Assembly: GCA_000002435.2 (NCBI GenBank)
Contig: CM018792.1
Direction: 5' to 3' (one strand)
Origin: Giardia intestinalis
Lineage: Eukaryota
DNA: 64,000 nucleotides
The notes under the pieces are model-generated. The model searched no databases. It was not told where the DNA came from and saw only the letters and a list, made by a program, of their open reading frames with translations. Below, piece after piece: positions 1-24,815 of the stretch. Positions within the stretch are counted from its first letter, which is position 1; each line of letters opens with the position of its first letter. The position numbers were made by a program, and so were the translations under genes.

Positions 1-3000
1 TTGTGGGCCAGAGTAACCTTGTCTTGCAGTTCGTGACATAATGAGAAAATACAATGCTTCAGAAAGCGAGAGTGCAGCAGCGAGCCCGGAGATGTGTATA
101 TTTTCTCATAGACAGACACGTGGTCTAGCTTGTGGAACACACGTGCATATGATACTAGCAACTGGTTGTAGAGCTCTGTCAGACGGCGATTTAGTGGGTG
201 ATATGATGCCCTCTCGGGGTCGTATCGACGAATCGCGGAGATGGTAGCCCAGATAGCCGCGTATAGATTCTGGATTTTCTCTATAATCGCAGGGTGAACG
301 CGAAGACGAGTCCGGAGTGTATTTACCAAAGCCTGCATGTGCTCTGACTCTATCACTGCCTGAAACAAGAGGGCTGCTGCTGAGTCTAAAGTTGTATACG
401 TGTCAGATATGCGAATGTGAGGGCAATCTGGAGGGGGGCTCTGCGTGACAAAGAAGATGAGCAAACCTAGAAGAGTGCGGCTAGAAATTATCGGCAGCTT
501 GAGCGTACCTGCCTCTAAAGCCAAGGCCTTATCAGTGGAGTGTCTAGTGGCAAAGTGTATCTGCTGTATGCGAAACAGGGTGAAATAATGATGAATCTTT
601 TCGATTTTACCTATTGGAGCGTTAAAGACAACCAGCTCCGGCGCAAATGCAGCACAAAGATGGCCAATAAGCACTCTGGAAAGCGCTGGAGCAGAATAAG
701 AAGTTGGAATTAAGATTATCAACCCATGCTTAGGCCTTACCGGCTTGCTAATGAACAATTGGACCAACCATTCTACGCTCTTGTTCCCATCAGATAGAAC
801 TACAACAAGGTAGGAGAGCAAGTCGGCGTGAGTGGGCTTTGTTTTATAAACGACAGGAGCAGTCAGCAGAAGCTGATCAACTAGATATTCGAACGCAAAA
901 GAGATGAGTGTAAGAATGTCCAACGTGGAATCGAAGAAGATGGCGACTGTTTTGGATGCACACATAGGACACATCTCTTCTAACAAAGACTGCTTGGATG
1001 CATGAGAAAGTGGTTGCCCATTATCGCTGAAAAACATTCCATAGGATAACTTTTCAGATGGAGGAAAATCCTGTGACCAAAGCTGGCTGCGATAAAAAGC
1101 AGCAATGAATTTGCTGATGGATCCAGTGAGAGACTTTAAAGGACACTGCAAGAACTTAGAGAGGAGCTCGTCATCTCGGTCAGAGCTGAATACGTCAACT
1201 AGACTGAAGCTAGCGGAGTTCGTTAGCTTGCTTACCTTCATAAGAAGGTTGAGGTCCTCCTGCAAATGAGTTGGATTGAGACATATGCTTAAAAGAAAAG
1301 CTATCCACACGCCATTTGCTGAAGGTGACTGAATTGAAATAGGAAAATTACCCAGGGTCATATCATCTTTCAGTTCCATAATCAGCTCATCGGGGATTAA
1401 TCGCTCATAGACTGAGTCAGTATTGTTATGTAGCTGCATGGAATTTTCAAAATTAGCCGACTTTCCCTTATCTTGGTGCGTGGTTTTTACAGAGAAACCG
1501 GCGGTCTCTGCCCTCTTTAGCATGGCTGTCATAGATCTCCTTGACATGCTTATGTGCTTTCTTGCCTTAGTTGCTGTTTTGGCTTGTAAGCTTGGGTGCA
1601 TATTCTCACTGTCTGCATAATCATAATCAAACATAGCATCATAATCCTCGTCAGTGAGCGAAGCCACCGAACCTTCTGAACTAGTGTCATCATCTGAATT
1701 GATAGTCTTCTTATCCGTGACTTTGTATGAGTTATAGTCCCCTGGGTGCGTGTTGGCGATTGGCTCTTTTACAGGCACTGTTCCAGACCCATATACAGCT
1801 TTGTTAGAAGTACTGCTCCAAGCAGGAACGATCCCTGTCTCTGATGTGAAGCCTCCAAAGAGCTCAACGATGTTGTATTCATGCACGGCTGACTTAAGAA
1901 GTGCATGCGGCGCCAGGAAAGTTTCTGCAGAAAGCCTATTAGAGTGCTTGGAAGATCTCTCTACGTAGGCGTAGTGACCAAGCACCTTCCGGAAGAAACT
2001 CGAGCCCCGAACATATGTCAAATACTGCGTTTTCTGGGTAGAAAAGAAGGCCACCCACTCCTTCGCAAGATCTGGGGCAATGAAGACCAAGCTGCAGAGC
2101 TTGTTCCACCTTTCTATTGCAAGGCTATCTGCGGTGTTTGGCAAGAATGAGTCCATGGCCCGTCCGTTGTCTAGAAAGCCTACTGGCTTAGAAAGTGACT
2201 GATCGGTAACAATAGATGAGAAGAGCAGCATATGCTTCTGTACATTGCACTGTCCTGAAATAGATTCCAAGCATGAGATCATTCCCAGAAGCGACTTCAT
2301 ATATGCCTGCGGAACAATAGCGGATATCTTTGATAAGAGATGATGCACAATCGTGGGGAGCAACTCAGTCATGCGTCGTTCAGAGGTGTGCTTCGGAAGC
2401 AAGCGGCGATGGTGTAAGGCGGAGTGGTCCACTCCTTGTAGGTCTACGATCACGGACGTTACTAAAGAGAAGAAAAATGTATCTGTAAAGGCCACTGAAA
2501 GCGCCTCAAATCTCTCGGACAATTTCCAAAGAAGCTCGTAGACTGAGAGCAGGGTCCTGGCACGTGTTCTTATTCCTTGCTTGATAGATAGCGGTATAAT
2601 AGTAAAGTCAGTAAGCTTCTGAAGTTCTGCGTGTATGTGCTTGATGTATGCTAAGAACAGCTCGACATCAGTTAGTGTTACAGGATTCTGAGGTGCAGAG
2701 AGACCTTCGAGGTACCTATTGAACTCACTTAGGACGCCAACGATTTTATTTTTTCTCAGCAAGAATTGACTTATGCGAATGATTGGAAGATTCAAATGGA
2801 TTGCCTCATACGTAAAAATAATAGTAAGCTCTTCGATAATATAGTCATAAAGGACCGTTTGCCTGTGCCTTTGGAGCTTTTCAATTGCAGATAAGCCTAT
2901 TGCAGGAAAATTGGACTGCGGGGTCCCTTCAGAAGTTGACGTTTCCGATCCAACGTAGTACTGTAAGGTGGCTACGGGACTATGAAGTATATGGAGTCTG

Positions 3001-6000
3001 TGATTAAACTCCAAGAGATACAGCGATTCATAAGGATCTGCAAGAGATAGGTACATCCGGCGCATTCTGGGGTGGTATGCAAGGGTCGCCTGCACTGCGT
3101 CGTCGATGCTTAGCGACGCGTGAAATGGCTTGGTATCCCCAAATTCATCCGGCTGTGGCAGCGGAGAATTTACCAACGTAAGTAACGAGCGCAACAATCG
3201 TGCTAGGCTACGGTTATTATCTGTGCACGACGGGGCGAACATGTTATATAAGCATAACGGATGGTCTGCGGCGCCGGAGCAGGAGAGTGCCAGACGCAGT
3301 CGAGAGATAAACTCATCATGTTGCATACTACAATCTATGAACTCAAAGCTATATGCTCTCTTGATCTGGTCAGCAGACGCTGGGTGCTGCAAGTTCTTGG
3401 TCTCTTCAATGTGGCGGAGCGTCTCAGCCATGTACAGAACAGGAAGAAAGAGAGAACACGGGAGAACAGGTATCTTCTCCTGTCCCCTGCTGAAGAGCGT
3501 GTGACATAGAAAGCTGTGCACAGTGCTTTTACGAAACAGAAGGTAACGGGAGTACTCAATGGAAATCCTACCATTTAAAAGGTCTTGCGACATGCCAAAC
3601 CGCATCTCTAGAGCGAGGTCTGCGTACCGGAGAAGGAGTGGAAGGTTTATCTGAAACGTGTCTAAGGCCAACATTAACGAGCGCTCAATGCCAGCGGAGT
3701 CCATCTCAGTAACAAAGTGATTCATGAAGGATCTATTGCTCACTTCAGCAGGCTTTTGGCCCTTGTTTTGGAAGCCTTTATACTCCACAGCTCCTCCTTC
3801 GATATGAGCCAAATAACGATTCGCTTGGGTGCTGTACTCACTGGTAGTGATAGACTTGACAAGGTCTGCGTCTATAGCAGCATTCATAATAAGGACCTCA
3901 AGAGCGTTACTGTGTTGAAGGGTGGGAAGAAGCTGATGCTTAAATACAAGGCTACTGACCGCTATTACCGAATCAACAATAACCCTACGAACAATTGCCG
4001 CAAAGTCATCCATAATTTCGTTGATAATAGTCAAAATATCTTCGCTCTGTGTGGCTAGTACAATGTCGTTGAACTTGGTTGAGCTTCGACTCCTGTGAGA
4101 AATGCTTGTCAATTTAGATGAGAATCTTCCTAGGATACCCCGAGGTGTGATGGAATCATCTGCAGCTTCGGGAGAAATTAATGGTGCCTTGGCGTGCTGT
4201 TTAGACTCAAGCATAAGGGGGAGTAAGGAATTAGTATTACACGTACCTTCTGGTACTGCTGCAAGAATATTAGTCTTGCTTGGTCCTTGCATGCCAGGCC
4301 TGGATTGCATGTGCGCTTCGTCTGTAGCAGTAGCGCCCAGACACACCCTTTGAAATTTGCTCTTGAGTGCCTCTGAGCGAAGATTATTGGCCAGAGTATA
4401 TAGTGTTATTGCAAACCCACTATACATCCCCATGCGCAAATAACAAAAACGCCAAACATGCTCTGTGTATGCGCTAAACGTCAAGGTATAATTCAGAGTG
4501 CTGGTCTGGAGGTATTGGAGGCAGATTGCATAGCCTATCGTGCATGCAAGAATAAGCGTTCCTCTAAACTCGCCGAAAATGTCGGGTGGCAGCACAGAGT
4601 TTGATTCAGGTAGATAAAGAGTTTTCTTGCTTGTTACTGAAAAACACCTCAAAAGAGGCTCTGCAACAGAAGAGAACATGATGTTGAGGGACTTCTCCAG
4701 GTTATGGAAGTAGTTGGTCGTGAAGGAGACACTGGTAAAGCTGTCTGTTCCGCTCAAGCACGTTCCGTTCACGACATACTTTTGTATAGCCTGGTCACCA
4801 ATTGACGGGAGAATAGTAAGGCATTTCAAAATATCTAGGGAAATGGATACGGTGTCATTAAGGACCAAAATGCTGAAGTTTCTAGAGAGAAGCCACATTA
4901 GCTCCTGATCGCAGAGTAAGAAATCAAGCTCATAATAGCAGCTCACAAGTAGGCTGATGAACCGGAGCTCTTCCTCCAGAAAAACCGCAGTAAGTGTATG
5001 AGGAAGAGAAGCAATAGAACTAAGGATATCCAGCTTCCCAACGAGGAGATTACTATGCAGAACCAATAATATATCAACAGGCTCTGGAAGAAAGAAGTCT
5101 CGGATGGATGCTCTTCCTAGGTGCTTCTTCACAAGCGAAGAATCAATAGAATTCCACACACCCATGCCTGAGGATGTCTCTGTGTTGTAAAACTCATTTA
5201 TCCTCAGAAGAGAAAGATCCTTGAGCCCCAGAGATGGACTAAATCCCAAGGCCATCAGCAGGTAGGCTCTAACGATGTAGTATGTAAGCACAGAAACATC
5301 CTTAGACGTTTTATAGACACCAACGAGGTCTACGAGAAAATCCAATCTCAGCCCGGTTAGTGGAAGGGAAAACCCGTTAACCGGTTCTCGCTCGACACAG
5401 TATTTATTGACCTCCCTGAAAATGTAATAGTACGGGTCGCTTTTCGAAAGCTTGCCAGAGTAGGTCATGACTGGCTTTTCGGCCCTAAGGAATGGGCGAG
5501 AATCTGGAGTGAAGACGGACTTCTTTTTGAGAGTTCGTAGGATGCGCGGATTGGTCTGCGCAATAAAGTCGTCTTCATCAGACGAGTCTGAATAGTAAGA
5601 GCTCTTTATTGGCTTCAGAGATTTGCGTATAGACAACTCCACGTCTCCTATCTCTGCCTCAATTGCAAGGATCCCAACCAGGGTAATCAGCTGGTAGGAA
5701 TTGATGAGATATCGGTGGTATCTGGTAAAGAGAAGATGAATTGCGAAGTTCGTATACATTCCTTGATGAATGTTGAGCAAGGAGACACTGCAATCCTTGG
5801 GTTGCTTAGGCTTAGATTTAGTTGAGGTCGGAGCCATCGATCCTCGCTGCCCATCTTTTGGTATTCGCACAGTACCGTCGTGTGGAGAATAGTATAAGCC
5901 GGTGATGAAGCCCATGAAGTCCAGGGAATTGACAAGCTTGAAATTGCCCAGAAGGGCAATAAACTGGAGCATATGATGTGTGTCCTCTACATAATTGTGC

Positions 6001-9000
6001 AGATTGCTTAGCTGAAGGTAGGAGATAAGAATCTTAGGAGGATTATAGACTCGACTGAACTGATTAAATTGGGTCATGCCATTGGCTGGACCAAATCTGA
6101 GCGTAGATAGATACTCATATATTTTGATGCAGTTTCGATGCCACATTATCTCTGTGATGAGGTATGCACGGATAAGTATTATAGCTACATGGCTTGAAAG
6201 ATGTGTAACCTCACGGATATCTCTGTACTTGACCAGTAGGCGAACAATGGTGGTACTGGGGCGTTTATCTTCGAAGTCCTGGACTAGTTGATGTTGAGTG
6301 AGGTCCAAGTCATGACTCTGCTCTTGCTCCTGCTCTGATCGGTCTCTAGCTGTGCTAACGTTGTCATTCCTCAAAAAGCCTTGGGCATAGTCAGAATATG
6401 TGGCCCGAATAGCAGTATTAGCAGCTGAGGTAAGCTCGCCACGCCTTTCGAGAAGATCGGGTCTATGCTCAGATCTGTCGGTGCTTTCGAGTGTCATACT
6501 AGATGAGTCATCAGAGCTGGAATCGGAGTCGAAGAAGTCTAGCCCAGCCCTGGTGAGCATAGATGTAAGGTGGATGTCTTGGAACTTGGACATCTTGCTT
6601 AGCATGGTAAGTGCAGCGTTCTTCTTAGATTCAGCCCTCTCTCTTGGTTTCTCAGCAGCGCTGACAGCAGTAGGCAGCAGTGGCTCATGCTTCGGGCCGT
6701 CATCCACAGATAGCTCGTCAATCAGATCGCCGGTGAACTTCAGCACGTCAACGGAGTACGCCTTGTCTATGTTAAGAATCTTGTTGTATCGAAAGTCTTT
6801 TCGTGCACTTACTGGGATCCTTCGTTGTAGCTCAAATCTGTGACGAGTGAAGTAGTCTCCATTAAAGATCAAAACAGGGGCATGCCTTGAGTTAGGCGTT
6901 GAAACCTTAGAATCTCTGCTAGATACAGGCATGGAGAGGGCGCTATGGGATGGCCCATCCGGATCGATGACCGTTTTGAGACAAGTCTCCCACGAAAAGT
7001 GTAGCATTATACTTATGGTATCTGCTCTACCATTGTCGGAGTAACTGAAAGGGATAAGAAAGGGATACATGCGCTTAAATGCTTCTGCATACTCCGGAGT
7101 AAGGACGCTAAAAACAGATGTCGAAGAGAGAGTGCCAACGGAGAATGCAGACACTAACTCGGAATAGACCCGTGTAGACACGGATATAGGGACAGAACCA
7201 TGTCGAAGAAGCGCCGAGAAAAGACTATTTGCAGAGGGAACTAGCATATGTAGATTCTCTAGAAAACTGGATGGAGGATAGCCGAAAACGTTTCTTACGT
7301 CGGTATCATCAAAGTACACATTCTGCTTCATGCTGCACAAGAGCTCGAGAAGAGATATAGGGAGGAGAGGCCTTATTAGTAGTAACCCTTCGGCAAAGGA
7401 CTTGACGAGGGTACGTATTACGATAGACATGGGCGCATACTTAGTCAACTGGGGTCTGTGGTCGCTCTGAAGGGCATCTATGTTTCCTGCTATGGACTCG
7501 GCAGATAGCTTTGGAAAGCGCTTGATGCCTCTGGCTGCAAACACTCTTGCTGTTATGGGCTGGAAGACCTTCGGATAATGAAAGCGGGGGGAGACTGGCA
7601 AGAGTGCAGTAAGGGGGTCGTCTACATCATAGTGGATCGCATGGTAGTTGGCGACGCTCTTTTCCATCGAGCAGTAGGCATCTTGTATTAGGTGGTCGTA
7701 CACAAAGTTGCGATAGACCAGGCTGTGGAAGAATGTGGGCTTACTAGTCGCAGAGAACGTTGACACATATACAGACATGTCCATCAAGCGTCTTGCCGTC
7801 CTTTCTGTGCATGAGCTAGATACTTCATAGATCACCACAGAATCACGGAGGAATATGCGGCCGCAAAAGCCCCCAATGGCCTTTGAAACATCACGCTGTG
7901 AAATATCGACGTAAATGACATGCTCGAGGAGCGGAAGGCTTAGGAACTCCAATAGATTTGCGTGAGTAAGGCCTGAGATATGTAAGATATTAAATTTGCC
8001 ATTAACAGATTGTGCTGTGTATAGATTTCCTGCTCGAGAAATTTCTGGTCGAAGGAGATAGCTTTTTCTGAGTATTTGTACTTGCAAATCAGCAATGGTC
8101 TTGATAGTACTATTGCCCACGTAGAACGTTTGGAGGGACACCCTGTCGGAGCCTATCAGCGAAGCGGCAATCTGCAAAATAGTGGTTTTTCCGCTAAAGG
8201 AGTCCCCCAGAATAACAAAGGACTCTCCAGATAACATACATCCTGCGTAATAGACTGCGTACGCAGACATGTCATTGGTGATCACTAGCTGGAGAGAGTT
8301 CGACGTATCTGCGTAGCTATTCTGCATAGTTAGGAGGCTGGTGCTAACAAAGATCTCTTCCCCTACTCTATAGGGAACTTCTAATATAGGCATGTACCTT
8401 CTAATGAATGAAACCACGTACTTATCATCTTGTGAGCCAGTTTTTTCGGGCACTGAGTCTAACTGAAGATGCTTCAGCCTTCCCAAGCGCGCCCGTGATG
8501 TCGTCTTTGGCGTCCCAGCAGAAGCAAGGTTATCCCCTTCTAGTTGGTGAGGAGCAGATGAAATACGAGAACCTTTGGTAGGTAAACTTTGACACTCTAA
8601 AGATGTAAGAACCCTTGTTGAAACACGCTGAAGAGATTGCCCCGTGGATGTAGACGAAGCAACCTTCCGAAGCACTGCAGAAAAGTCAGTGCAGTCTGCG
8701 TTCAGTTCTGCTTTTTCTGGCAACAAAGAAGTGTTGTTAACAGGCCGAGAGATGTCTAGGCGTTGTGCTTGAGAATTGTTCTTGATCTTGTTGACTGATG
8801 ACGCTGACATTCCCGTGGGAATTGTCGATTGTGTTTCTTTCAATCTGCTGATTCTTAATTGGTCGGCTCTTTTGCTCAAACTTTCCATGCACTTCTTTCT
8901 ATATTGTGGCAGAGACACTTGCTCCAATTCATAGATAATCTCGGCTGTGAGCCCGAGCTTCTTTGCAATCGTCAACAAAAGCCTGTCCGACAAGTATGAC

Positions 9001-15000: not shown

Positions 15001-18000
15001 TTAAATGGAGAAATGAGCTCCAGACTATCCCGGATGCTTATGGAGGAGTGATCAGAAAAGCCTTTCCAGTCTTGGCTCAAGGTAGTTGGTTCATCAAATG
15101 TACATGCATGCTCTAAGCATTGATTCAGAAAGTAGGAAGCAAAGTGGTTAGAATTGAAAAGAAGCCGAATGGTGGAGAGAAATGAAAAATGCTGGATACC
15201 GTACAGAAGAAGTGAGACGACTAATAGGCGCAGTGTGGGTATCCATGTCCTATAGTTACATTCTAAGCGACAACACTCAAAGAGTGCGGTATTTTTAAAA
15301 CTATTAATCGTTTCTAATATTTTTGCAGAGATGATATCGGGCGAGTTATCCTTCAGTTTGATCACTGTTCGCACGTCCTTTTGCTTAACATATAGCGTTT
15401 GGAAGTACTTTATTTTGACGGGAAGCTTGATTACGTTCATGTGCATAGCAACATCCCGCAGTGACTGTAGGCCAGTGTTGGAAAGCAAGGTAAGCACTGG
15501 CGCATCGCGGATAGAGTTATCTAGAATAAACTGGCTGGCACGACTGGCGTTGGATATAGCCAATCTCGAGCCAGCTGCTATTGCAGAGACAACGCTAGTG
15601 ATCACAGTCTTCGCTGGAGCTCCATGAATGCTTGAAACGTTCGGTGGCGTATCTCCAACTGAGACGTGTTGATTGAATTGGCATTTAGCGGAGCGTACAG
15701 AGCGTGCAGTATCAATTGAAAAGCTATTTGCTGAAACTTCTCCAGCGGGCAACGGCAGTCCAAGTTGTGCGGTAGATATCTCAGAGGTGGTGTCACAGGC
15801 TGCTTGATCGTGGTCTTCGTGCAAGTTTTGGGCATGCTTAAGCAGTCTATCATCAAACGTGATAATCTGAGACGACTGGGACGGAGACGGTGGTGAAGTA
15901 GATTCTTTGTAAATAGAATCCCTAACCTTAGCAGCTGTTGGAGCAACTGATGAATCGATCATGGAGCCCGCTCCTTCAAGGTTTTCTTCCTGTACAACGG
16001 AAAGCTCCTGTTTGGCAGCTCGTGCTGTAAGTATAGATGGAAGCGATGAGGTTTTCGGTTTCTCCTTAGAACGCTGCGAGATTTGGAGCGTGCTCTGCTG
16101 CTTCAGTGTATATCCTGCCGAAATTTTTTCCCCATCAAGCAAGCTAAGAATAAACTTCATCCCTCTTGTTACGAAGGTATTGCTCTGTGTGTTCTTCTCA
16201 GAAATTAATACGGTGAGGTCATCCATACCTTTGGAAAGTAACTCTTCGTGACGGGGTGTATCAATGTTGGTCGTCAAGCCCTTAGGGGCATCGGCATCGA
16301 TACCATCAGTGGTAAAAATGGATGTTTCAAGGATTACTTGGTGTCTAGGATCATAGTCTTCATTGATTAAAAACTCTGCGGTGCTAGGTTCTATGAGTCT
16401 GTGGGCTGTGCTCTGATGATACGAATATTCCGAGTTGTATTGATCATGTCTGTCATTAAGGCTAGGTGCTGCATGGGCCAACATTGAAATGTTGCTACGC
16501 TCGGCCACATGCATCTTTCGGCTGCACAAAAAGATTGTGTCTATATATGTTAGGAAAAGTGACGGATTAAAAGCCGTCACTGGCTGATGCATTATTCGTG
16601 TGTAGGAGGCAAACATATCCACAATTGAAACGAGAAGTTGACAAGGGCTTTCAACCACTGAAAGAATGTCTCGAAAGCTTGGCTCCTCGATAGCCAAGGT
16701 GATCCCGAGAATCTCGCTCCATTGGGTTATTGCACCAAATATCTTAACAGTCTCCTTAACGAGAACATGTACCTCCGTGAAGATCGCATAGAGGTCATAG
16801 TACGGCGACGTATTACCTGTCTGCTTTTGGTCTGCAGACTGCTTCATTATAAGTGTGTTACCCGAGGCATGACTCATCTTTATCGTTCCCGATCTCGAGT
16901 CCTCGTCTAATTCATATATGCACTTTACCAGGAATCGAAAGAGCGACTCCAAATCGGTAATTAGTGGGTTGCTGCATAGATAGTCGTCTGTCGGCCGAGT
17001 ATAAAGAGTGATCATATGCCTCTGAAATGAACTGTGTCGCGTTATCGCCAAATTGGTGTGGCTTTGTACAAACTTTATGAATGCATAGGCGTCCTCCCCG
17101 TTTTGAGATTTAAAGTACTGTTCGAGTCTATTCAACACAATATTGCTCGTCAGGCGTGGATATTTTTCCTTGAACTCATGCGGTCGAGCCACAGAAGATA
17201 TCAGATCAGACGTTGTGAGCCGTGTTACTTCGTTCGCAAGGCCTATGCACAGTTGGCGCAAGTAGAGAAGATATTCTACACTGAGATAAATGAAATTAGA
17301 AAACGACTGGAGTCTCCGATCGATGTTTCTTTTGCAGGTGTTAATAAGTCGCCTGAAGTTGAGGATTTTTTCTATGAACGAAAGAATAAGATAATTATGC
17401 GCATATCCCCGAAGTTGCAGTTGAGAAAGCCTCATTGAAACAAGAATGGAGACCTTGGGCAGAGTTGCTTGACACTTAACTGCCTTTTCGAAGGGGAGCT
17501 TGGCAGGATCAATCTTGTTGCTTGCAACACGCTTCAGGTAGCGTGTCTTCCTTCGCTCATACTTACTACGATCCTTAGAGATCCTAGTCCAGAGCTGGAT
17601 GTCGAAGGCATGATCAAGCATCTGCTCAAACGTAATACGGTCCTCTGGAATAAATAGTAGATCTTTCTGGAGAAGATACCGGTGCACACTTAGGTCATGA
17701 AGCGAGTCCATGTCAGCAGCAGCGTGCTGATTGGTACGCTCGACTTCCGCTGGACTATCTTCTCTAGCTCCGTCTGTATGTACGGTGATGTCTTCCTTTT
17801 TATCAGCGGACCCTTCAGAATCTGAGTCGTCGCTTTGATGAATCGTCCCCTGTGATTCAGTCTGGACACCTGCCTTTAATTTGGCACTAACACCCAGATA
17901 CTCAAAGAGGCTTTGGACGTCTGTAATAGACGCAGTACTCTCAATGTAGGACAAGAGAGGTAGAAGATCTATGAGCATCTTGATCGCCGGGATCCAGCCA

Positions 18001-21000
18001 CATATGAACTTCTGGGCATCATCTAGGCCAGTGATGACCATATCCAAGTTATCCGGAGTGTCCATGTCGAGGCAGATCCTGTTCTCAAAGAAGGAAATGG
18101 TAGCAAAGGGTGTCTGTAAAACCTCACTGATTGTCTGGCGAACATGTTCACGAACGTGCTCGATTACAGCGATGAGCTTATTTATCAGTTGCTTCTTCAT
18201 TAGGGTGGTGTCATACATAATAAAATTGATATAGAATCGCGGATTGATTGGCAAGATTTCTTTTCTAATGTAATTTAGTATTCTATTAATTACTATAGTA
18301 GCGTTATCAACAATCACGTAAAGAAGGGAAGCCTCACGGTGCCGCTTTCTTATAGAATTCTTCTCTGATGAAGGCTTCCCCAGCCGTGGGAAAGGACAGT
18401 CAGATATGTGCGGCTCTTTGCTGGAACTCTGTTGTTGGGTGGTGGTAGCTAAGGACGCCGTCTCTGACCTGTCTGAGTGCTGTTCCTGTTCGCTATCCTG
18501 TTCTTCAACAGTACCAGGAATTGGAGTGGCAGCACTTGAGGAAGACTCCTTAGTAGGGTCACAAAGACCATATGAATTTAGATACTCGCCTGTAGTGAGT
18601 TGTACACTGAAGAGGGGGTTATTAAAGGTAAGTATTTCATCATGTAATATGTTAGTCATATCTGCCTGCTCTTCAACGACTAACTTGGCAGGACTCTGAT
18701 AAAGGAAGAGGGGTGGAGTAAATATAGACTCCGGTAACGAGTTATCTGTCTCCTGGGTGCTTGCATCATCCAGTAACCTCTTGAGCTGTTCGGCATCTTC
18801 GCTTGCAGTTAGATATCGATGTCGCAGGACATTATGCAATGCAATAGTGTGCAGTTTGTTCCGTTCTAGCTCTCTTGTGATGTTCTCTGAACATAGAAAG
18901 GCAGCTGAATAAATATTAGAAAGCAACTGGTCAAACTGCCGAAAAAACTGGCGATTGTAAGATATTATTAACAAATTTGACTTAGATCCCATTGAACTGG
19001 GCGGGCATCGGTATAGTATTTCCTTCAATGACGTGATATTGTTGAAGTTTTCTTCGAGGAGCTGCGCATAGCTGAGTCGAAGCCTCTTCCGTTCCTCAAA
19101 ATAGGCTAGCTCAAAGTCCGAATAACGTGATGCTATGATATCTTCCAGGTACACCTCTCGCTGAAGACGATCCTGAAATGTCTTGGGCTTAATAATATTG
19201 AAGGAGGTTAGATCTTGTTGTATGAGCTCAAGCTCCTTATGAACCAGTTGTTTGCAGTATCGCTTAAGTGGCGGTAGCTCAGAGTAGCCTTTCACGATGC
19301 TTTTAGATAAGAAAATCAAATTGGTAGTGAGGTGGTACTCGAGATCAGTATTAAGTCGATGTAAGGAGTGCACTAAATTGGTGACGACAGTCCGGATCAT
19401 AGTAACTTGGGCAACGCAATCCACTGTGAATCCAACTACCAGATTAGCCAGCCCATTAAGATCTTCTCTGCGCTGGTAGGGCTTGAACACATCTGGCTTT
19501 CGAAAACATACGAAGTCCAGCTTAACAAGTGGCTTATGAGGCAGTTTAATAGTAGAAACATTCTGAGTCGTTATTGCTGCTTCTATGGAGCTGGTGGATC
19601 GCAATTGATTCATAGATTCTTCGGTTGCATAGGCATACTCTGCACGGCACAACTCCAAGAGGTTCTCCTGAATCATATCTAGGTCTTCAGAGAATGTACG
19701 CTGTAGAAAGAGAACGACCTGATAGTTAAATATCTCGTAGGCAAGAACTGGGTTTTCTTCCAAGCGTCTATTACTCTCTTGTATCTTGTTTAAGTTGAAG
19801 TCCCTAAAGAATAGCGCAGAAATAAGCGGGACAACATCGGTGATGAAGAGTGCAAAGAGCTTGCTGTACAAAAATGCGTACCTTAATGTGTCAGAGTACT
19901 GATCACTATCGAGAGGAAGATCATAGTAGAAATCAGCGTGCGCCGAACCAGTAGACTGCTCAAGAATGCTCTTCACAATACTCTTTTGGGCCTCCTTAAC
20001 AATAGCCACATTGGCATGCTCATCTTTCAATTGTAGGGCAGGCTTACTCTCGTCGTCGTCATCATCAGATATCACATCCAGATTGTGATAAACATGAGGT
20101 GGCTCAAGATGTATTCGCTGAGAAATGTACTTTTCGACATATATATGGGGAGATTTTAGCGTACGGCGTCTCAACATGGGAAGAATTAAGGGATCTAACA
20201 AGAAGTCAACTGTGCGAGGAAAAGCGGAGAACTCCTTTAGCAAGGATTGGGTCTCCGATGATTCACGCTTGATCACCTCATAGATCTGTCGCTTTACAGA
20301 GACGAAGTTATACCCAAGCTCTCTATACCTTAGCTCCAGTTCTGCGAACAACTCATTGTATTGTCGTAAAAGAATCCGTGACGAGGAAAACGCATCTAAT
20401 AGCCCTGCAATAGAGAGATTGATTGGTGCACAAAACCTTGATAGAAGTTGAAGAAACGTGTTTGACAGCTTTATAAACTTTGACGAATACCTGGGAAGAT
20501 CCAATAGAACAGTGTGCTGAGCTATGAATGGCCTTTTGCTGAGAGAAATTGCTGATTTGGAATAGAACGAAAAGGTGGTAGATCCACGTGCCCGTCGACT
20601 AACCATCGAGTGGAAGATCCGCCTGGTCTCACGAGAGTACAGAATAATACCATACCGTAAACAATCATTGTAGAGCGCATGCAACTCTACACTAATAGAA
20701 GTTGAGTCTGCACATGGGAGGTTTGGTGGTGTGCTATTTGCAAAATAAGAGCTGGTAGTATTGGTACCATTGTTCTGGTCTTCACCGTCTGGTAACAAAT
20801 CGCTTAATCCCTTCAAAATCAACGCAATCTTTTGAAGATCACAGGATTTGCGAGGTGCAAGCACACGCGTTTCTTCATTGACATCGTCAATTGTGCAGAG
20901 ACGCATCAGCGTATAGCTCACTGCTTGAGAATAGAAAACAGAGTAGTCAGAGATAATGCCCTCTAGCGCAGCTGGTAACACAGGACACAATAAAAGAAGT

Positions 21001-21965
21001 AGGCCATGTGCCTCTGTGCTATAAAGATCACCAGTAAGAAGAAGGGACTTCTGCTCAGTAGTGAGTTGGGACGATAGAGGGGTAGAGAGAAGTGAACGAA
21101 GGACTGCCCTATTGTCTCTAAGAAAGAGCCAAATTGTTTTTGGGTTAATCAGTAGGGAGGTCGATCGTTCAACATCTTTTTTAGCTCGTTCGAAGTCAGC
21201 TAATGATGGCGAAAGATCCAAGCTAAAGTGCTGACTCTGCACCTGAAGTTGCGATTTGACGTAGTCATTAGAAAATAAGTGAAGGTTGAAGAGGAGGCAT
21301 ACCGAATTAATAACCAAGCGCCGTATGTGTGTATGTAACGTATGCTCCAGATATGTGACCCGCTTGTCCTCGTTGACAAAGCGATCAGAGGAGGAACGGT
21401 TTCTAAGAGTTAGTAAGGTATCTGCAGTGGTAATAACAAGAAAGTTATCAATCAGGTAGCGAGCAGATTGTTCGTATGAGGAGTATATCCCATTATTATA
21501 GAGATTGTAAGAGAAGCGTGCGTCCTTATCATCCTGGAGGCTACCGTAGCAGTCTAAATGTATAAGTTGCAGATTAACCTCATGGAATGACCTGGTGCAC
21601 GCATCCCAATCTGTAGAATCTCTGCCAGTGGACAAGGCTACCAAAGCATAGTTCCTTGCAACATCTATTGCTAGGAGGCGGATGGGAACAAGGGTGAATT
21701 GATTATATTCATAAAATGCAGGATGGCCACGAAGAGCTGGATTGTCAATTGAAGATTGAACAACACGAATTGTAATAGTAGTAAGACTGAGGGTAGGTGC
21801 GCTCTCCTGGAGCTCTGCATAAGACCGAGTAATATTCTTTAATGAAAGAGATGGAGATGCAGGGGAGGTTTGTGTTGGAGACGCGCGATGAAGGGTCGAA
21901 GGCTCCCGCTGGCCTATATGCAATAACTTGCAAAAGACTATGGGAATTCGAAAGCTGACACTCAT
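1..21965 (-). CDS. Giant hypothetical protein, 3'-partial (runs off the window's left edge); at least ~7,300 codons in the window; one Walker-A-like motif
   Basis: Across 22 kb the track lists no complete ORF of 60 aa or more in the minus frame whose codon high coordinate is ≡2 mod 3. All six short minus-strand ORFs listed in 1–22000 sit in the other two frames; five of the six share frame ≡1, as expected for out-of-frame noise over a real coding frame. Hand translation of three widely separated spots (1–140, 8100–8220, 21900–22037) shows this frame open. The first ATG is at ~21963–21965, preceded by an in-frame stop at ~22035–22037. Revcomp of ~8100–8220 reads ...FVILGDSFSGKTTILQIAASLIGSDRVSLQTFYVGNSTIK.... 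A complete ORF would have been listed, so the frame must stay open to position 1. Confidence 0.7.
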   Translation of the reverse strand, partial: MSVSFRIPIVFCKLLHIGQREPSTLHRASPTQTSPASPSLSLKNITRSYAELQESAPTLSLTTITIRVVQSSIDNPALRGHPAFYEYNQFTLVPIRLLAIDVARNYALVALSTGRDSTDWDACTRSFHEVNLQLIHLDCYGSLQDDKDARFSYNLYNNGIYSSYEQSARYLIDNFLVITTADTLLTLRNRSSSDRFVNEDKRVTYLEHTLHTHIRRLVINSVCLLFNLHLFSNDYVKSQLQVQSQHFSLDLSPSLADFERAKKDVERSTSLLINPKTIWLFLRDNRAVLRSLLSTPLSSQLTTEQKSLLLTGDLYSTEAHGLLLLLCPVLPAALEGIISDYSVFYSQAVSYTLMRLCTIDDVNEETRVLAPRKSCDLQKIALILKGLSDLLPDGEDQNNGTNTTSSYFANSTPPNLPCADSTSISVELHALYNDCLRYGIILYSRETRRIFHSMVSRRARGSTTFSFYSKSAISLSKRPFIAQHTVLLDLPRYSSKFIKLSNTFLQLLSRFCAPINLSIAGLLDAFSSSRILLRQYNELFAELELRYRELGYNFVSVKRQIYEVIKRESSETQSLLKEFSAFPRTVDFLLDPLILPMLRRRTLKSPHIYVEKYISQRIHLEPPHVYHNLDVISDDDDDESKPALQLKDEHANVAIVKEAQKSIVKSILEQSTGSAHADFYYDLPLDSDQYSDTLRYAFLYSKLFALFITDVVPLISALFFRDFNLNKIQESNRRLEENPVLAYEIFNYQVVLFLQRTFSEDLDMIQENLLELCRAEYAYATEESMNQLRSTSSIEAAITTQNVSTIKLPHKPLVKLDFVCFRKPDVFKPYQRREDLNGLANLVVGFTVDCVAQVTMIRTVVTNLVHSLHRLNTDLEYHLTTNLIFLSKSIVKGYSELPPLKRYCKQLVHKELELIQQDLTSFNIIKPKTFQDRLQREVYLEDIIASRYSDFELAYFEERKRLRLSYAQLLEENFNNITSLKEILYRCPPSSMGSKSNLLIISYNRQFFRQFDQLLSNIYSAAFLCSENITRELERNKLHTIALHNVLRHRYLTASEDAEQLKRLLDDASTQETDNSLPESIFTPPLFLYQSPAKLVVEEQADMTNILHDEILTFNNPLFSVQLTTGEYLNSYGLCDPTKESSSSAATPIPGTVEEQDSEQEQHSDRSETASLATTTQQQSSSKEPHISDCPFPRLGKPSSEKNSIRKRHREASLLYVIVDNATIVINRILNYIRKEILPINPRFYINFIMYDTTLMKKQLINKLIAVIEHVREHVRQTISEVLQTPFATISFFENRICLDMDTPDNLDMVITGLDDAQKFICGWIPAIKMLIDLLPLLSYIESTASITDVQSLFEYLGVSAKLKAGVQTESQGTIHQSDDSDSEGSADKKEDITVHTDGAREDSPAEVERTNQHAAADMDSLHDLSVHRYLLQKDLLFIPEDRITFEQMLDHAFDIQLWTRISKDRSKYERRKTRYLKRVASNKIDPAKLPFEKAVKCQATLPKVSILVSMRLSQLQLRGYAHNYLILSFIEKILNFRRLINTCKRNIDRRLQSFSNFIYLSVEYLLYLRQLCIGLANEVTRLTTSDLISSVARPHEFKEKYPRLTSNIVLNRLEQYFKSQNGEDAYAFIKFVQSHTNLAITRHSSFQRHMITLYTRPTDDYLCSNPLITDLESLFRFLVKCIYELDEDSRSGTIKMSHASGNTLIMKQSADQKQTGNTSPYYDLYAIFTEVHVLVKETVKIFGAITQWSEILGITLAIEEPSFRDILSVVESPCQLLVSIVDMFASYTRIMHQPVTAFNPSLFLTYIDTIFLCSRKMHVAERSNISMLAHAAPSLNDRHDQYNSEYSYHQSTAHRLIEPSTAEFLINEDYDPRHQVILETSIFTTDGIDADAPKGLTTNIDTPRHEELLSKGMDDLTVLISEKNTQSNTFVTRGMKFILSLLDGEKISAGYTLKQQSTLQISQRSKEKPKTSSLPSILTARAAKQELSVVQEENLEGAGSMIDSSVAPTAAKVRDSIYKESTSPPSPSQSSQIITFDDRLLKHAQNLHEDHDQAACDTTSEISTAQLGLPLPAGEVSANSFSIDTARSVRSAKCQFNQHVSVGDTPPNVSSIHGAPAKTVITSVVSAIAAGSRLAISNASRASQFILDNSIRDAPVLTLLSNTGLQSLRDVAMHMNVIKLPVKIKYFQTLYVKQKDVRTVIKLKDNSPDIISAKILETINSFKNTALFECCRLECNYRTWIPTLRLLVVSLLLYGIQHFSFLSTIRLLFNSNHFASYFLNQCLEHACTFDEPTTLSQDWKGFSDHSSISIRDSLELISPFNHQLASQINKQYLLNYSAENRLLEIYYWLHNIDIFITYYTINLHLNDEIARVLGDLDFTFGEHNADAAEAIKTEISDSNSLVPVVQKSGILLPRRTVGVTEVIEDATAPGSETKSDLAEAFKDQHRHCTDSSDEDAFDLFETPFGRIAGCTNRKTTLPLLKPRIKALTIIAPQPSIASRDDDASLSHQPGNSTLSSQTPIKETNDTTKQARAKSILISRDQRHVQSKVLLGNQRTRAPLIRKRRSYDGPARITLPFFNTHPYLLKALREGIFIVTAILADKGVIPKVAKMARIIEDKLIFCRNFVIAIGNVRKLLPELIALTNAIYDGIADLTLLKLSPNDVKKVTIEILSCLKHICIFAKSKHEVVWKLNSMGQQNVHEHESVYTLPFISFLDNLNLLDRRRCGTRLSVPKFYTDESPNPNCFQFMNLFARDILAKVQSFMTNVLAAEELLSRCRRNLSSHPVVTTIYANQQYRICAPYARLPLSFAVLYSQLTTVPLTGVLTDALFNSVFSPLIVDTDESSVEDGFEDEPPRDMTDVKHGPQLSYSLLSNLIDSTGNFFGIFKGHENIFYQTIIKANARVKDCYLFTEGSLHSQHIVHNYRKAALLFLNERYREALLFCTYQAIVYALSCIVYLYCDGRSESFIYCYENVICSMIRILEEETYDLIRGTGKLRAQGSFQVGSTFSATSSRILMLKALYARLLEHKETLDIMALTVVQHVIARNILPPERIPSLTDQFDARLCWDILLLYGRNRGLVLSGLEHGVSLSIATNRQTSALVYSLASDTLLGNGANRRVDLPMLDLTYTAEEKTLIKNAKARLQARTESVSLLTSNSDAPEGTEPRDTKGNDNVAFDDFAALTMELFRTPESLSKLNQATVSTANLDDKMAYATPVSSIALNCDTNITDFRMPTAPLSETLVNIVLSGQLISISSSYFNPANEYDSMYISHTMRLKAARLISALRSKSVALLLTDWARGYFALEVYYLAHLVARYLSSHVLFIPITDASFLPQYNRLRELLISRYLVILYGVDTLTKEHLEMLSTTFATTTLSYGFEDFSSYSISSETRLEFNPYSRSSRSYSSQGWIPIDSDIDHSFCRLIIWLAGAMPQECSVTTTMTSSPSSHSQRSSSGPHIVDEHYIYQVHPHAERVTQKFRKAYMMYLPFIPYISTLQSTHEFRTTQLVCASASLVDQTTFTKNFSAYKSIVLEVYMEHVESLKHQIVVRADKNLGDSCCTISPFQRLFRSLPGLYQDSFYHLHVFLSNLSNDFPKLLGLDFMLIQHRLAPDANRTAACTQTFVYLVSCMYLATEESFCLVDDINSDLLQSDGATHEEVKSEAPHAAINLQHKLSILISCLISVFGLSPANATTFEHSGSRVTSDSMAYMIRRSSSPKYLESLHGLQRSAGILSEFGAYMATVMMDLLAAKEPFAILTTSMAQQFFEYVHAILSRASALTFLLAYSSADIHFYADLLSAFPNRYALAIVLDQHSDLLLYQNILGMLAARQTIYSENNKTYTFKAPVHVIIVARARDARILQLSIRKFSLSRNLHLSDIGFYFMSFGNLSQLNISHLISIQAPTLASISSYDKLMQYIYANFDADYHIYTSSFLTRTKLGLYISYFNFLVFNFVMFISTEIGAHLTLTLRHWRIIKALIHLFFRYYGILDVQTGNDSHRPTLSTEEELSTDTMNLYHELSIRSYTDAKNPISFKQQKDLREASTKPLEFNINDALGSHFSYFSEPISLAHSFADLRGESLQSNPGAHNLNHRSVSFETAYSTMLNQTSAQFTQSFISRLLLTSNSRHIADILHYSVISTVFSAFMLLYRMEYINGGLLFNSLSYYRLYASLLSYIPTFSLTLESEFFEQHVFYRKDGFRLSKWMHLFCDNAIMSLQDLYVSQTYFFTNAETYPTFSALFAKRHAESLNPKVAHSTGSSTGSSTLSRGPNYCETYANVSDMGAAARGEASVEAFSVPDDQFAAKPEKTVSDSNFKSMWGGSTYSFIAITSYLSDRLLLTIAKKLGLTAEIIYELEQVSLPQYRKKCMESLSKRADQLRISRLKETQSTIPTGMSASSVNKIKNNSQAQRLDISRPVNNTSLLPEKAELNADCTDFSAVLRKVASSTSTGQSLQRVSTRVLTSLECQSLPTKGSRISSAPHQLEGDNLASAGTPKTTSRARLGRLKHLQLDSVPEKTGSQDDKYVVSFIRRYMPILEVPYRVGEEIFVSTSLLTMQNSYADTSNSLQLVITNDMSAYAVYYAGCMLSGESFVILGDSFSGKTTILQIAASLIGSDRVSLQTFYVGNSTIKTIADLQVQILRKSYLLRPEISRAGNLYTAQSVNGKFNILHISGLTHANLLEFLSLPLLEHVIYVDISQRDVSKAIGGFCGRIFLRDSVVIYEVSSSCTERTARRLMDMSVYVSTFSATSKPTFFHSLVYRNFVYDHLIQDAYCSMEKSVANYHAIHYDVDDPLTALLPVSPRFHYPKVFQPITARVFAARGIKRFPKLSAESIAGNIDALQSDHRPQLTKYAPMSIVIRTLVKSFAEGLLLIRPLLPISLLELLCSMKQNVYFDDTDVRNVFGYPPSSFLENLHMLVPSANSLFSALLRHGSVPISVSTRVYSELVSAFSVGTLSSTSVFSVLTPEYAEAFKRMYPFLIPFSYSDNGRADTISIMLHFSWETCLKTVIDPDGPSHSALSMPVSSRDSKVSTPNSRHAPVLIFNGDYFTRHRFELQRRIPVSARKDFRYNKILNIDKAYSVDVLKFTGDLIDELSVDDGPKHEPLLPTAVSAAEKPRERAESKKNAALTMLSKMSKFQDIHLTSMLTRAGLDFFDSDSSSDDSSSMTLESTDRSEHRPDLLERRGELTSAANTAIRATYSDYAQGFLRNDNVSTARDRSEQEQEQSHDLDLTQHQLVQDFEDKRPSTTIVRLLVKYRDIREVTHLSSHVAIILIRAYLITEIMWHRNCIKIYEYLSTLRFGPANGMTQFNQFSRVYNPPKILISYLQLSNLHNYVEDTHHMLQFIALLGNFKLVNSLDFMGFITGLYYSPHDGTVRIPKDGQRGSMAPTSTKSKPKQPKDCSVSLLNIHQGMYTNFAIHLLFTRYHRYLINSYQLITLVGILAIEAEIGDVELSIRKSLKPIKSSYYSDSSDEDDFIAQTNPRILRTLKKKSVFTPDSRPFLRAEKPVMTYSGKLSKSDPYYYIFREVNKYCVEREPVNGFSLPLTGLRLDFLVDLVGVYKTSKDVSVLTYYIVRAYLLMALGFSPSLGLKDLSLLRINEFYNTETSSGMGVWNSIDSSLVKKHLGRASIRDFFLPEPVDILLVLHSNLLVGKLDILSSIASLPHTLTAVFLEEELRFISLLVSCYYELDFLLCDQELMWLLSRNFSILVLNDTVSISLDILKCLTILPSIGDQAIQKYVVNGTCLSGTDSFTSVSFTTNYFHNLEKSLNIMFSSVAEPLLRCFSVTSKKTLYLPESNSVLPPDIFGEFRGTLILACTIGYAICLQYLQTSTLNYTLTFSAYTEHVWRFCYLRMGMYSGFAITLYTLANNLRSEALKSKFQRVCLGATATDEAHMQSRPGMQGPSKTNILAAVPEGTCNTNSLLPLMLESKQHAKAPLISPEAADDSITPRGILGRFSSKLTSISHRSRSSTKFNDIVLATQSEDILTIINEIMDDFAAIVRRVIVDSVIAVSSLVFKHQLLPTLQHSNALEVLIMNAAIDADLVKSITTSEYSTQANRYLAHIEGGAVEYKGFQNKGQKPAEVSNRSFMNHFVTEMDSAGIERSLMLALDTFQINLPLLLRYADLALEMRFGMSQDLLNGRISIEYSRYLLFRKSTVHSFLCHTLFSRGQEKIPVLPCSLFLPVLYMAETLRHIEETKNLQHPASADQIKRAYSFEFIDCSMQHDEFISRLRLALSCSGAADHPLCLYNMFAPSCTDNNRSLARLLRSLLTLVNSPLPQPDEFGDTKPFHASLSIDDAVQATLAYHPRMRRMYLSLADPYESLYLLEFNHRLHILHSPVATLQYYVGSETSTSEGTPQSNFPAIGLSAIEKLQRHRQTVLYDYIIEELTIIFTYEAIHLNLPIIRISQFLLRKNKIVGVLSEFNRYLEGLSAPQNPVTLTDVELFLAYIKHIHAELQKLTDFTIIPLSIKQGIRTRARTLLSVYELLWKLSERFEALSVAFTDTFFFSLVTSVIVDLQGVDHSALHHRRLLPKHTSERRMTELLPTIVHHLLSKISAIVPQAYMKSLLGMISCLESISGQCNVQKHMLLFSSIVTDQSLSKPVGFLDNGRAMDSFLPNTADSLAIERWNKLCSLVFIAPDLAKEWVAFFSTQKTQYLTYVRGSSFFRKVLGHYAYVERSSKHSNRLSAETFLAPHALLKSAVHEYNIVELFGGFTSETGIVPAWSSTSNKAVYGSGTVPVKEPIANTHPGDYNSYKVTDKKTINSDDDTSSEGSVASLTDEDYDAMFDYDYADSENMHPSLQAKTATKARKHISMSRRSMTAMLKRAETAGFSVKTTHQDKGKSANFENSMQLHNNTDSVYERLIPDELIMELKDDMTLGNFPISIQSPSANGVWIAFLLSICLNPTHLQEDLNLLMKVSKLTNSASFSLVDVFSSDRDDELLSKFLQCPLKSLTGSISKFIAAFYRSQLWSQDFPPSEKLSYGMFFSDNGQPLSHASKQSLLEEMCPMCASKTVAIFFDSTLDILTLISFAFEYLVDQLLLTAPVVYKTKPTHADLLSYLVVVLSDGNKSVEWLVQLFISKPVRPKHGLIILIPTSYSAPALSRVLIGHLCAAFAPELVVFNAPIGKIEKIHHYFTLFRIQQIHFATRHSTDKALALEAGTLKLPIISSRTLLGLLIFFVTQSPPPDCPHIRISDTYTTLDSAAALLFQAVIESEHMQALVNTLRTRLRVHPAIIEKIQNLYAAIWATISAIRRYDPERASYHPLNRRLTELYNQLLVSYARVFHKLDHVSVYEKIYTSPGSLLHSRFLKHCIFSLCHELQDKVTLAH

Positions 21966-22103
21966 TAGGAAAACTTTACGCCCTGAGTGACTGAAATATA
22001 TGCTCAAACAGGATAGGGACAGGACACGAGCTGACTAGTCCAGGACGCGATGCAAAGGTCTTAAAAAAATCTCCGCTTCAGGTAGCTCGACTTGTGTACG
22101 TCC
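21966..22103. promoter_or_regulatory. Short AT-rich divergent intergenic region (putative bidirectional initiator region) between the giant gene (−) and the hypothetical gene (+)
   Basis: About 138 bp separate the two divergent start codons and include 'cttaaaaaaatctcc'. Giardia promoters are short AT-rich initiator elements right next to the ATG. Confidence 0.35.
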
Positions 22104-22808
22104 ATGGCGATACGCGAACTGGAGCTGTTTCTAAATCACTCTTTGACAGACGAGATTCGATCGCAGCTCATAACCAAGGTCACAGAGATGCTCACCATGC
22201 CCGAGCTCGTCCACTTCCGTTGCTCACTACAGTCAGACTATGGTATTGCTGCACCTATAGGTCTCTACGACATTCTTCGGAGGATTCCCCTGTTTGCTGA
22301 CCATGCCTTTATGACCATCGGAGAGGTCTTTAGTGGCCTTTTTGCTGTAGCAGACTCCTTTCATGAGGTCATTACAGAGATTCAACCGTCTCTCGAGCAA
22401 TACGAAGGCCATATTTTGTGGCTCCTAACAGACACTTATAGTAGCCTCATGCACCAATCCCGTAGCTTCAAAGATTTGGGGATTCCCGTGAAGCGGATTA
22501 AGATGATTCTCAAAACAGCTTATAAGTTTACCCCAGCGCTTCCCAAGACCATTCATGACTTGGATGCCGATACAATGTCCCAGGTTCCGTCCCATGATGA
22601 GCTTAACAAACTACGCGAATACGTTGACCAGCTCCCTAACGCACAAGCCCGAGCGTTAGTGTTTGGTAAACTCTTAAGAGAGATAGGGAGGCGCCCCGAG
22701 GAAATAATCCTCAATGGGAACCAATTAAATCTAGAACTCACTGACCTGCCCTCCTTCGCATTCTGGGTCCTACTGGATGCTGCACAAGCGTATGCAACTC
22801 CATCATAG
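22104..22808 (+). CDS. Hypothetical protein (~234 aa)
   Basis: The track ORF 22092–22808 begins at an alternative TTG. The first in-frame ATG (MAIRELELFLNHSLTDEIRS...) is at 22104. It is transcribed divergently from the giant gene across a ~140-bp AT-rich spacer. I recognise no domain. Confidence 0.5.
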   Translation: MAIRELELFLNHSLTDEIRSQLITKVTEMLTMPELVHFRCSLQSDYGIAAPIGLYDILRRIPLFADHAFMTIGEVFSGLFAVADSFHEVITEIQPSLEQYEGHILWLLTDTYSSLMHQSRSFKDLGIPVKRIKMILKTAYKFTPALPKTIHDLDADTMSQVPSHDELNKLREYVDQLPNAQARALVFGKLLREIGRRPEEIILNGNQLNLELTDLPSFAFWVLLDAAQAYATPS

Positions 22809-24254: not shown

Positions 24255-24815
24255 TTAAATGCATCGCGCAGTTGCTTGTGATAGACGCCCGGCAGGTGGA
24301 CTCCCAGGCCGCCACTCTTCTTCGGTGCCGCCAGGAACGATCCACCTCTTCGGGTCAGAGCCGAGTATCCCTCCAAGGGCCTCTCCGACCTGCCTGTCGA
24401 AGGATTCATATTGTTCAACTGGTGAGTCCATCTCGACGAGCGGTGCGTAGCCGGCCATCGGAATGGCGTTGATCCTGGCCAGCGTCAGCTTGGCGTGGTG
24501 GGTGATCGGCGCGTCCATCACCAGCTTCAAGCTCTCTGCTGCCTTCTCTATCGCCCTGGGGGCTATGGACTGCTTCTCCTTCGAGACCGGGGCCCCCGGG
24601 AAGGAGACCTCCTGTCCTCTTTGGGTGCTCTTGCACTTGTCAATGTTGACTGTCAAACCATATCGTTTCGCCAGGGCTGTCGCCTCTGTGATTATCCCCG
24701 TCGCGTCGCTGTCGTTGGCATGGAAGCTGAGTGCGTCGTCAGTGTAGGCAATGAGTAGGGTATCTCTCCTTCGGCTCCTGGTGAGCAGGTTCTGTCCCCC
24801 GCAGCACAGAAGCAT
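24255..24815 (-). pseudogene. Reverse transcriptase fragment (domains ~5–7 only; 5'-truncated and frame-disrupted)
   Basis: Motifs AYTDD (YxDD catalytic box), LTVNIDKCK and GAPVSKEK. There is no upstream RT domain 0–4 and no intact long ORF. Confidence 0.55.

Follow-up and report, generated by a model that had tools for sequence, protein, structure and literature searches.

A 23.5-kb single-exon gene of Giardia intestinalis, constrained along its length, very probably encodes one giant P-loop protein

Results

A stop-free reading frame fills the first third of the window

The DNA analysed here (the window) is a stretch of 64,000 nucleotides from contig CM018792.1 of the Giardia intestinalis assembly GCA_000002435.2, and its first third is occupied by a giant minus-strand open reading frame (ORF) that runs off the left edge. 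The original prediction, made from the letters of the sequence, held that this third contains no listed ORF above 150 aa and that a single frame nevertheless stays open to the edge, having been omitted from the list for want of a stop. The mechanical ORF list reaches a maximum of 147 aa in 1..22040, and the giant ORF is missing from it because the lister drops ORFs that run off the source. Six-frame translation of the window with no stop demanded, the check that had been proposed, found its longest stop-free stretch on the minus strand, where 7,344 codons run from 22034 to 3. The runner-up anywhere in the window has 1,986 codons, and across these 22 kb each of the remaining five frames is interrupted by 297-561 stops. 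Given the base composition of the region, 7,344 stop-free codons have a probability of about 10^-165. The frame also shows strong codon-position periodicity (e.g., G makes up 25.6%, 13.6% and 21.5% of positions 1, 2 and 3). No in-frame stop lies between 1 and 21965, so the frame is not split, and its phase (high coordinate of the ATG equal to 2 mod 3), its first ATG (21965-21963, predicted near 21965) and its upstream in-frame TAG (22037-22035, predicted near 22036) all lie where they had been placed. The features that delimit the gene are as follows.

3..21965, minus strand: coding part, codons 1-7,321 of 7,838 (open frame, identity to the public protein and contig described below, and a ratio of nonsynonymous to synonymous substitution rates, dN/dS, of 0.105 against assemblage B)
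21963..21965, minus strand: ATG start codon (first ATG past the upstream stop; N-terminus MSVSFRIPIV kept in assemblage B DNA)
22035..22037, minus strand: in-frame TAG that closes the frame upstream (sequence reading)
21966..22103, no strand: intergenic region of 138 bp between the giant ATG and a divergent 234-aa gene (sequence reading)
22104-22808, plus strand: divergent 234-aa gene (ATG at 22104; equivalent neighbour in the public contigs of both assemblages)

The promoter of the giant gene would have to lie in 21966..22103. Scans of the gene with Rfam and for transfer RNAs and tandem repeats found nothing embedded in it.

The frame belongs to a known gene of 7,838 codons

A protein search returned a public entry of 7,838 aa (P0001) that is 100% identical to the ORF in the window over the final 5,000 residues of the latter and is named 'hypothetical protein GL50803_0035487 [Giardia duodenalis]' (XP_001708404.1, KAE8303497.1, UniProt A8BAI0). 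The whole gene is present on a public contig (L004), which matches the coding part in the window with 0 mismatches in 21,965 nt. The predicted location of the 3' end beyond the window was borne out on this contig, where the gene runs 1,552 nt further past the left edge, giving 517 more codons and a TAG. The window ORF and GL50803_0035487 are the same gene (100% identity over 7,321 aa), the window being merely short of the last 517 codons; it holds the first 93% of a gene that spans 23.5 kb. The gene in the window is of the WB type, Giardia duodenalis assemblage A. With high confidence, then, the minus strand at 3-21965 holds codons 1-7,321 of single-exon GL50803_0035487, one real and constrained gene for 7,838 residues.

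The size claims made earlier hold as well. More than 7,300 codons had been assigned to a single gene, and there are 7,838 in full, with orthologs of the same length, the same ends and a dN/dS of about 0.1. The protein had been called larger than dynein heavy chains, and it compares with 4,646 aa in the human cytoplasmic dynein-1 heavy chain. It also exceeds midasin and RNF213 in length. The one description that stands only in part is that the gene is invisible: this is true of the ORF track of the window but not of public annotation. The gene is already known, having long been in GenBank and GiardiaDB as a 'hypothetical protein' or under the unsupported name 'ABC transporter ATP-binding protein'.

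Orthologs of constant length evolve under purifying selection

Orthologs of nearly the same size are found in the other Giardia lineages: 7,850 aa and 84% identity in assemblage E (P15, GLP15_2708), 7,808-7,836 aa and 70% identity in assemblage B (GS, GL50581_234 / ESU44786.1), and 7,866 aa and 68% identity in a fourth lineage. A further public entry, ESU35709.1, clusters with GL50803_0035487. The assemblage B locus (contig L003) is syntenic on both flanks and shares the N-terminus MSVSFRIPIV, and the alignment of the GenBank GS protein (P0145) to the giant protein begins at residue 1. On that contig a conserved ATG corresponds to the WB start and is the one used by the GenBank GS entry; the called assemblage B start (L003:1418) lies 14 codons downstream of it.

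We compared the assemblage A and B genes by the Nei-Gojobori method over 7,783 aligned codons, divided into sixteen blocks of about 500 codons. The proportions of nonsynonymous and synonymous differences were 0.157 and 0.670 (pN and pS), giving a dN/dS of 0.105. By block, the ratio lies between 0.045 and 0.185 in 15 of the 16, those rich in linkers included, and the remaining one (aa 3521-4029) gave no estimate since dS was saturated. Because dN/dS is 0.105 overall and low in every resolvable block, these alignments indicate that the whole frame is one protein-coding gene, translated and under purifying selection along its full length.

A second giant and one distant homolog

A type-2 giant of 7,616 aa (P0005) is about 25% identical to the protein in the window and collinear with it end to end. 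Its gene lies at a different locus (L001:6001-28851, Logan SRR2158266) with 48.6% G+C. Six genes that lie upstream of the giant gene in the window were compared with this locus, and none matched it. That P0005 might be the ortholog of some distant species was considered and rejected, as its 90% cluster includes GenBank ESU45201.1, a 7,678-aa protein labelled Giardia duodenalis, which makes it a paralogue. The accession of that entry belongs to the same series as that of the assemblage B ortholog ESU44786.1, which suggests that both giants reside in one genome. The simplest reading of these sequences is that an old duplication left two giant paralogues in G. duodenalis. The two are collinear over their full length, have several short motifs in common and each carry one Walker A motif, at an equivalent point of the chain; they differ in that their identity is only about 25% and that the type-2 gene sits at another locus with other neighbours. 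A 2.3-kb contig from another sample also carries the paralogue version, 59-84% identical to P0005 piece by piece.

An exhaustive HMMER search with a profile of aa 4480-5679 against 1.84 billion representatives matched only the Giardia giants, their fragments and one further protein (P0008). This homolog has 7,203 aa, is encoded by a single exon (L002:3001-24612, Logan SRR31929897; 52% G+C, 31-bp gap to the adjoining gene) and carries the same P-loop, which is among its five collinear BLAST matches to the Giardia protein. A word-index search seeded with it found itself and no other relative in 5.8 billion proteins. These sequence searches detect no family member outside Giardia other than this 7,203-aa homolog.

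A long protein with conserved blocks, acidic linkers and no recognised domain

The protein is rich in leucine (12.5%) and serine (10.9%) and contains only 0.4% tryptophan. Pfam found nothing above noise when applied to the whole protein, to 800-aa tiles, to the members of the P-loop alignment, to the paralogue or to the distant homolog; at noise level it matched DUF927, AAA_14 and ABC_tran at the P-loop (E 0.002-0.3). Searches of the PDB with single sequences and three profiles, the profiles spanning the entire length, likewise returned no solved relative and P-loop noise only. Self-BLAST of the giant protein found no internal repeats, and a profile comparison of twenty 400-aa segments with one another (190 pairs) gave a lowest P of 0.015, which is the chance level. 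Hydropathy analysis showed four weak peaks in 7,838 aa, and neither the paralogue nor the distant homolog retains any of them; the protein is probably soluble because it has no conserved transmembrane helix. A composition scan identified 12 polar segments rich in acidic residues and serine, 869 aa in total, that lie between better conserved blocks. The main features of this architecture are listed here.

18666..20510, minus strand: aa 486-1100, an N-terminal block that is conserved (27-38% identical to the paralogue; Pfam and PDB searches returned no relative)
8466..8876, minus strand: aa 4364-4500, one of the 12 polar segments, a linker of low conservation shortly before the P-loop domain (composition scan; in the block with the highest dN/dS, 0.185)
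4806..5528, minus strand: conserved block, aa 5480-5720 (second in conservation; best BLAST match to the 7,203-aa homolog)
5487..5588, minus strand: acidic Ser/Asp cluster, then Phe, then a basic stretch (SDSSDEDDFIAQTNPRILRTLKKK), aa 5460-5493 (paralogue version SDEDQFVSRVDPRVLRK)

After one of the acidic linkers, the giant and its paralogue have in common the motif SDEDxF(I/V)x4PR(I/V)LR. Acidic Ser/Asp clusters beside a Phe recur along the chain, at 14568-14612 (aa 2452-2466), 5487-5588 (aa 5460-5493) and 6501-6533 (aa 5145-5155), with the sequences DSSDEDAFDLFETPF, SDSSDEDDF and FDSDSSSDDSS, and one of them is kept in the paralogue. It is speculation that such clusters serve as phosphorylation or docking motifs.

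The P-loop module carries an invariant Walker A motif

The most conserved 100-aa block among the six homologs, aa 4501-4600, contains a Walker A motif, and three features describe the module around it.

7041..8423, minus strand: P-loop domain region, aa 4515-4975, predicted alpha/beta core followed by helices (conservation and low-confidence AlphaFold2 models)
8184..8207, minus strand: Walker A GDSFSGKT, aa 4587-4594 (no other G-x4-GK[ST] is shared by orthologs, paralogue and distant homolog)
7974..7997, minus strand: hydrophobic strand KFNILHIS, aa 4657-4664, candidate Walker B position (alignment; strand in both AlphaFold2 models)

With the next Thr the motif covers aa 4587-4595, about 59% along the chain, and the family consensus is G-x2-F-[ST]-G-K-T-T; its G, F, G, K, T and T do not vary among the six sequences. 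A Walker A motif conserved among homologs is the hallmark of P-loop nucleoside triphosphatases, and the giant possesses it. The strand KFNILHIS would occupy the Walker B position; its K and H are invariant, it contains no conserved acidic residue, and an E occurs in the paralogue only (IIHIEG). AlphaFold2 models of the module have a beta-alpha-beta arrangement followed by helices, with mean predicted local distance difference test (pLDDT) scores of 34 and 42 and 50-69 in the core. An imperfect 21-bp tandem duplication at 8196-8236, encoding SGESFVI / LGDSFSG, lies right at the Walker A motif. From its sequence, the giant is best described as a P-loop protein that sequence profiles assign to no class.

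By sequence comparison, the P-loop module fits neither ABC ATPases nor dyneins

GenBank gives the name 'ABC transporter ATP-binding protein' to the DH and GS orthologs and to the paralogue (ESU35709.1, ESU44786.1 and ESU45201.1), and if these names were right the giant would be an ABC-type ATPase. Some observations agree with them: the weak, non-significant profile matches in the PDB are mostly to ABC nucleotide-binding domains (E 0.4-2), an hhalign comparison with the two nucleotide-binding domains of the ABC transporter encoded in the window gave a probability of 45% (P 2e-4), and an 'AIGGF' aligns to the LSGG signature 105 aa past the Walker A lysine, a spacing that is ABC-like. However, once the Walker A motif was cut from both sides, the hhalign score of 12.7 (P 0.42) fell short of the 17.4 of a reversed control; because the score drops below the control without Walker A, the similarity to ABC proteins is that of the P-loop alone. 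Nor do the paralogue and the distant homolog keep the signature-like motif, an hhhhDE Walker B or an H-loop, 'AIGGF' being confined to type-1 sequences, and Pfam ABC_tran matches one of six members with an E of 0.2 at best, while hydropathy shows no conserved transmembrane helices. Neither the signature, Walker B and H-loop taken together, nor similarity beyond Walker A, nor transmembrane domains speak for membership among the ABC ATPases or transporters, and we regard an ABC-type ATPase as very unlikely. The GenBank name is unjustified and rests on Walker A alone. A divergent dynein-like or other ring-forming AAA+ mechanoenzyme, in which the P-loop would be AAA1, preceded by an extended tail and followed by degenerate AAA modules, earns equally little credence. 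Its appeal lies in the context of the P-loop, L-V-I-T-x-D-M ... G-x-S-F-S-GKTT, which resembles L-V-Q-T-P-L-T-D ... GPAGTGKTE in AAA1 of human DYNC1H1, in a comparable length after the P-loop (about 3,250 aa, and about 2,700 in human DYNC1H1) and in Foldseek, whose best match is a dynein-1 AAA1-3 fragment (7z8h, E=1.0, not significant) and whose weak matches include other AAA+ proteins (RFC, Yta7, ORC, katanin). The model behind the Foldseek match has, however, a pLDDT of 42, and the profile comparisons point the other way. For these we retrieved 120 AAA1 sequences, of which a 90-sequence profile was used, and checked the human DYNC1H1 motor against PDB 5NUG (2,781 aa, one ungapped stretch, 6,407 bits). 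The six-sequence P-loop alignment matched the AAA1 profile with an hhalign probability of 1.8% (P 0.027), and the C-terminal 3,800 aa matched the human motor with a probability of at most 2.8% (best score 34.9, reversed control 22.0). Pfam AAA_5 to AAA_9, DHC and MT gave no match even at E up to 10, and the PDB profile searches returned no dynein, though the PDB holds dozens. The giant has a single P-loop, shows no profile-level likeness between any of its 400-aa segments and does not conserve an acidic Walker B residue. Membership among dynein heavy chains, which have six tandem AAA+ modules (Pfam AAA_6, 7, 8, 9 and related models) with P-loops in AAA1-4, finds no support either in these modules or in profile similarity to AAA1 and to the motor.

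A different objection is that the long frame is not one functional gene and is instead a chance or decaying frame, or a series of adjacent units with separate mRNAs or proteins. Literature and supplementary-file searches for the giant gene returned no transcript or peptide record, and the twelve poorly conserved polar linkers could in principle divide such units. Against this, the probability calculated above (about 1e-165) rules out a chance open frame, and four Giardia lineages keep 7,808-7,866 codons uninterrupted, with the same start and with synteny. Moreover, dN/dS is at most 0.19 in each resolvable 500-codon block, linkers too, with synonymous sites near saturation, and the paralogue and the distant homolog keep the full length in one frame as well. 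We hold this objection to be extremely unlikely to be correct, and one constrained gene remains the reading that we carry forward.

Neighbouring genes and other observations in the window

Beyond the divergent 234-aa gene, the neighbours in the window include variant-specific surface protein (VSP) genes, genes for ankyrin-repeat and NEK-type proteins, IFT140, an FKBP-TPR protein and the ABC transporter. The VSP, ankyrin/NEK and IFT140 neighbours, like the 100% identity to GL50803_0035487, mark the DNA as that of Giardia. On the public contig, the region downstream of the giant gene carries a VSP gene, a gene for a leucine-rich-repeat protein, Mpp10 and a tubulin-tyrosine-ligase gene. The VSP genes in the window were placed as follows.

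31147-33021, minus strand: variant-specific surface protein gene
33944-36322, plus strand: variant-specific surface protein gene

The G+C content at third codon positions (GC3) is 0.476 in the giant gene, 0.484 in IFT140 and 0.42-0.69 in the other genes of the window. Overall G+C is 0.43-0.47 in the giant gene (window 1-22000) and higher in most of 22001-64000, where it reaches 0.59. Going by published work on codon usage in Giardia, a GC3 as low as that of the giant gene would fit a low-abundance product.

Of a YchF/OLA1 GTPase (Pfam PF06071), an ORF at 29209-29883 (minus strand) encodes the C-terminal part alone; reading by eye through the minus-strand frames up to the VSP gene at 31147 found no N-terminal G domain for it, and truncation of a copy, a pseudogene or a split in the gene could each account for this. 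At 24255-24815 (minus strand) there is a weak reverse-transcriptase match (RVT_1, E 1.5e-5, under the gathering score), probably a retroelement remnant. Two further ORFs, at 42805-47832 (minus strand; 1,675 aa) and 37524-39686 (plus strand; 720 aa), have no above-threshold Pfam domain.

Discussion

We infer that the product of GL50803_0035487 is best read as a lineage-restricted, nucleotide-binding giant scaffold. It would be a very large, mostly helical protein of multiple domains, and ATP or GTP, bound at the single P-loop, would set the conformation of the scaffold or the binding of its partners. Binding or slow turnover would be likelier than motor-like hydrolysis because there is no conserved acidic Walker B residue. 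The roughly 12 polar linkers, acidic or rich in serine, could act as flexible joints and might be phosphorylated. As a whole, this nucleotide-gated mechanism is a tentative proposal, which we think more likely to be wrong than right.

Several points weigh against the scaffold reading. Its helical character is drawn from weak AlphaFold2 models and from composition (the leucine content), the fold class of the P-loop module is unproven, both models being of low confidence, and nucleotide binding is suggested by the Walker A motif by itself. Neither a transcript nor a peptide nor a localisation record for the giant was found in the literature and supplementary-file searches. The original prediction held that such giants in Giardia are usually cytoskeletal or flagellar scaffolds, and a cytoskeletal location is no more than a possibility here. 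A copy of the paralogue in the WB strain is not confirmed, and the reach of the family is uncertain, two of the homologs being known from Logan samples alone.

A bolder proposal groups the two paralogues of about 7,700 aa with the 7,203-aa homolog as a class of single-P-loop giants that had gone unrecognised. These could be a lineage-specific, nucleotide-gated structural machine, e.g., at the ventral disc, in the median body or in the axoneme-associated cytoskeleton, or else the remnant of an ancient eukaryotic giant ATPase that diverged past recognition. We consider this class improbable on present evidence. Sequence profiles link the family to no known family, and a structural link remains conceivable.

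None of the identifiers of the gene had a true match in the literature searches, nor was the gene found in the supplementary files of the proteome and transcriptome papers examined. What is added here to the existing entries is the constraint profile, the second giant paralogue and the distant homolog, the invariant Walker A hallmark, and the negative tests for dynein and ABC proteins. The giant gene overturns nothing known. It does illustrate that ORF tracks that discard frames leaving the window can hide the largest gene of a region. It also exemplifies the 'dark' proteome: constrained throughout and duplicated, it takes up 23.5 kb of a highly compact genome without having a domain, a structure or a literature. 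The single invariant Walker A motif offers a concrete experimental handle, namely nucleotide binding and K4593.

Comparison with known systems places the giant at some distance from each of them. With ABC nucleotide-binding domains it shares the Walker A motif and the strand that precedes it, and a similar spacing to a weak 'IGG' in type-1 sequences. It resembles dynein heavy chains, midasin and RNF213 in being very large and probably soluble, with a P-loop deep in the chain. However, those proteins contain six tandem AAA+ modules that Pfam recognises and several Walker A/B pairs, whereas the giant carries a single P-loop, repeats no module and shows no likeness to them by profile. Another giant has been described in Babesia duncani, where BdWA1_000001 has 11,561 aa and no conserved-domain matches (PMC10993292). 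Both proteins are many times the average size in their proteomes and poor in domains, but there is no sequence relationship between them, and the Giardia giant differs in having a conserved P-loop and an ancient paralogue.

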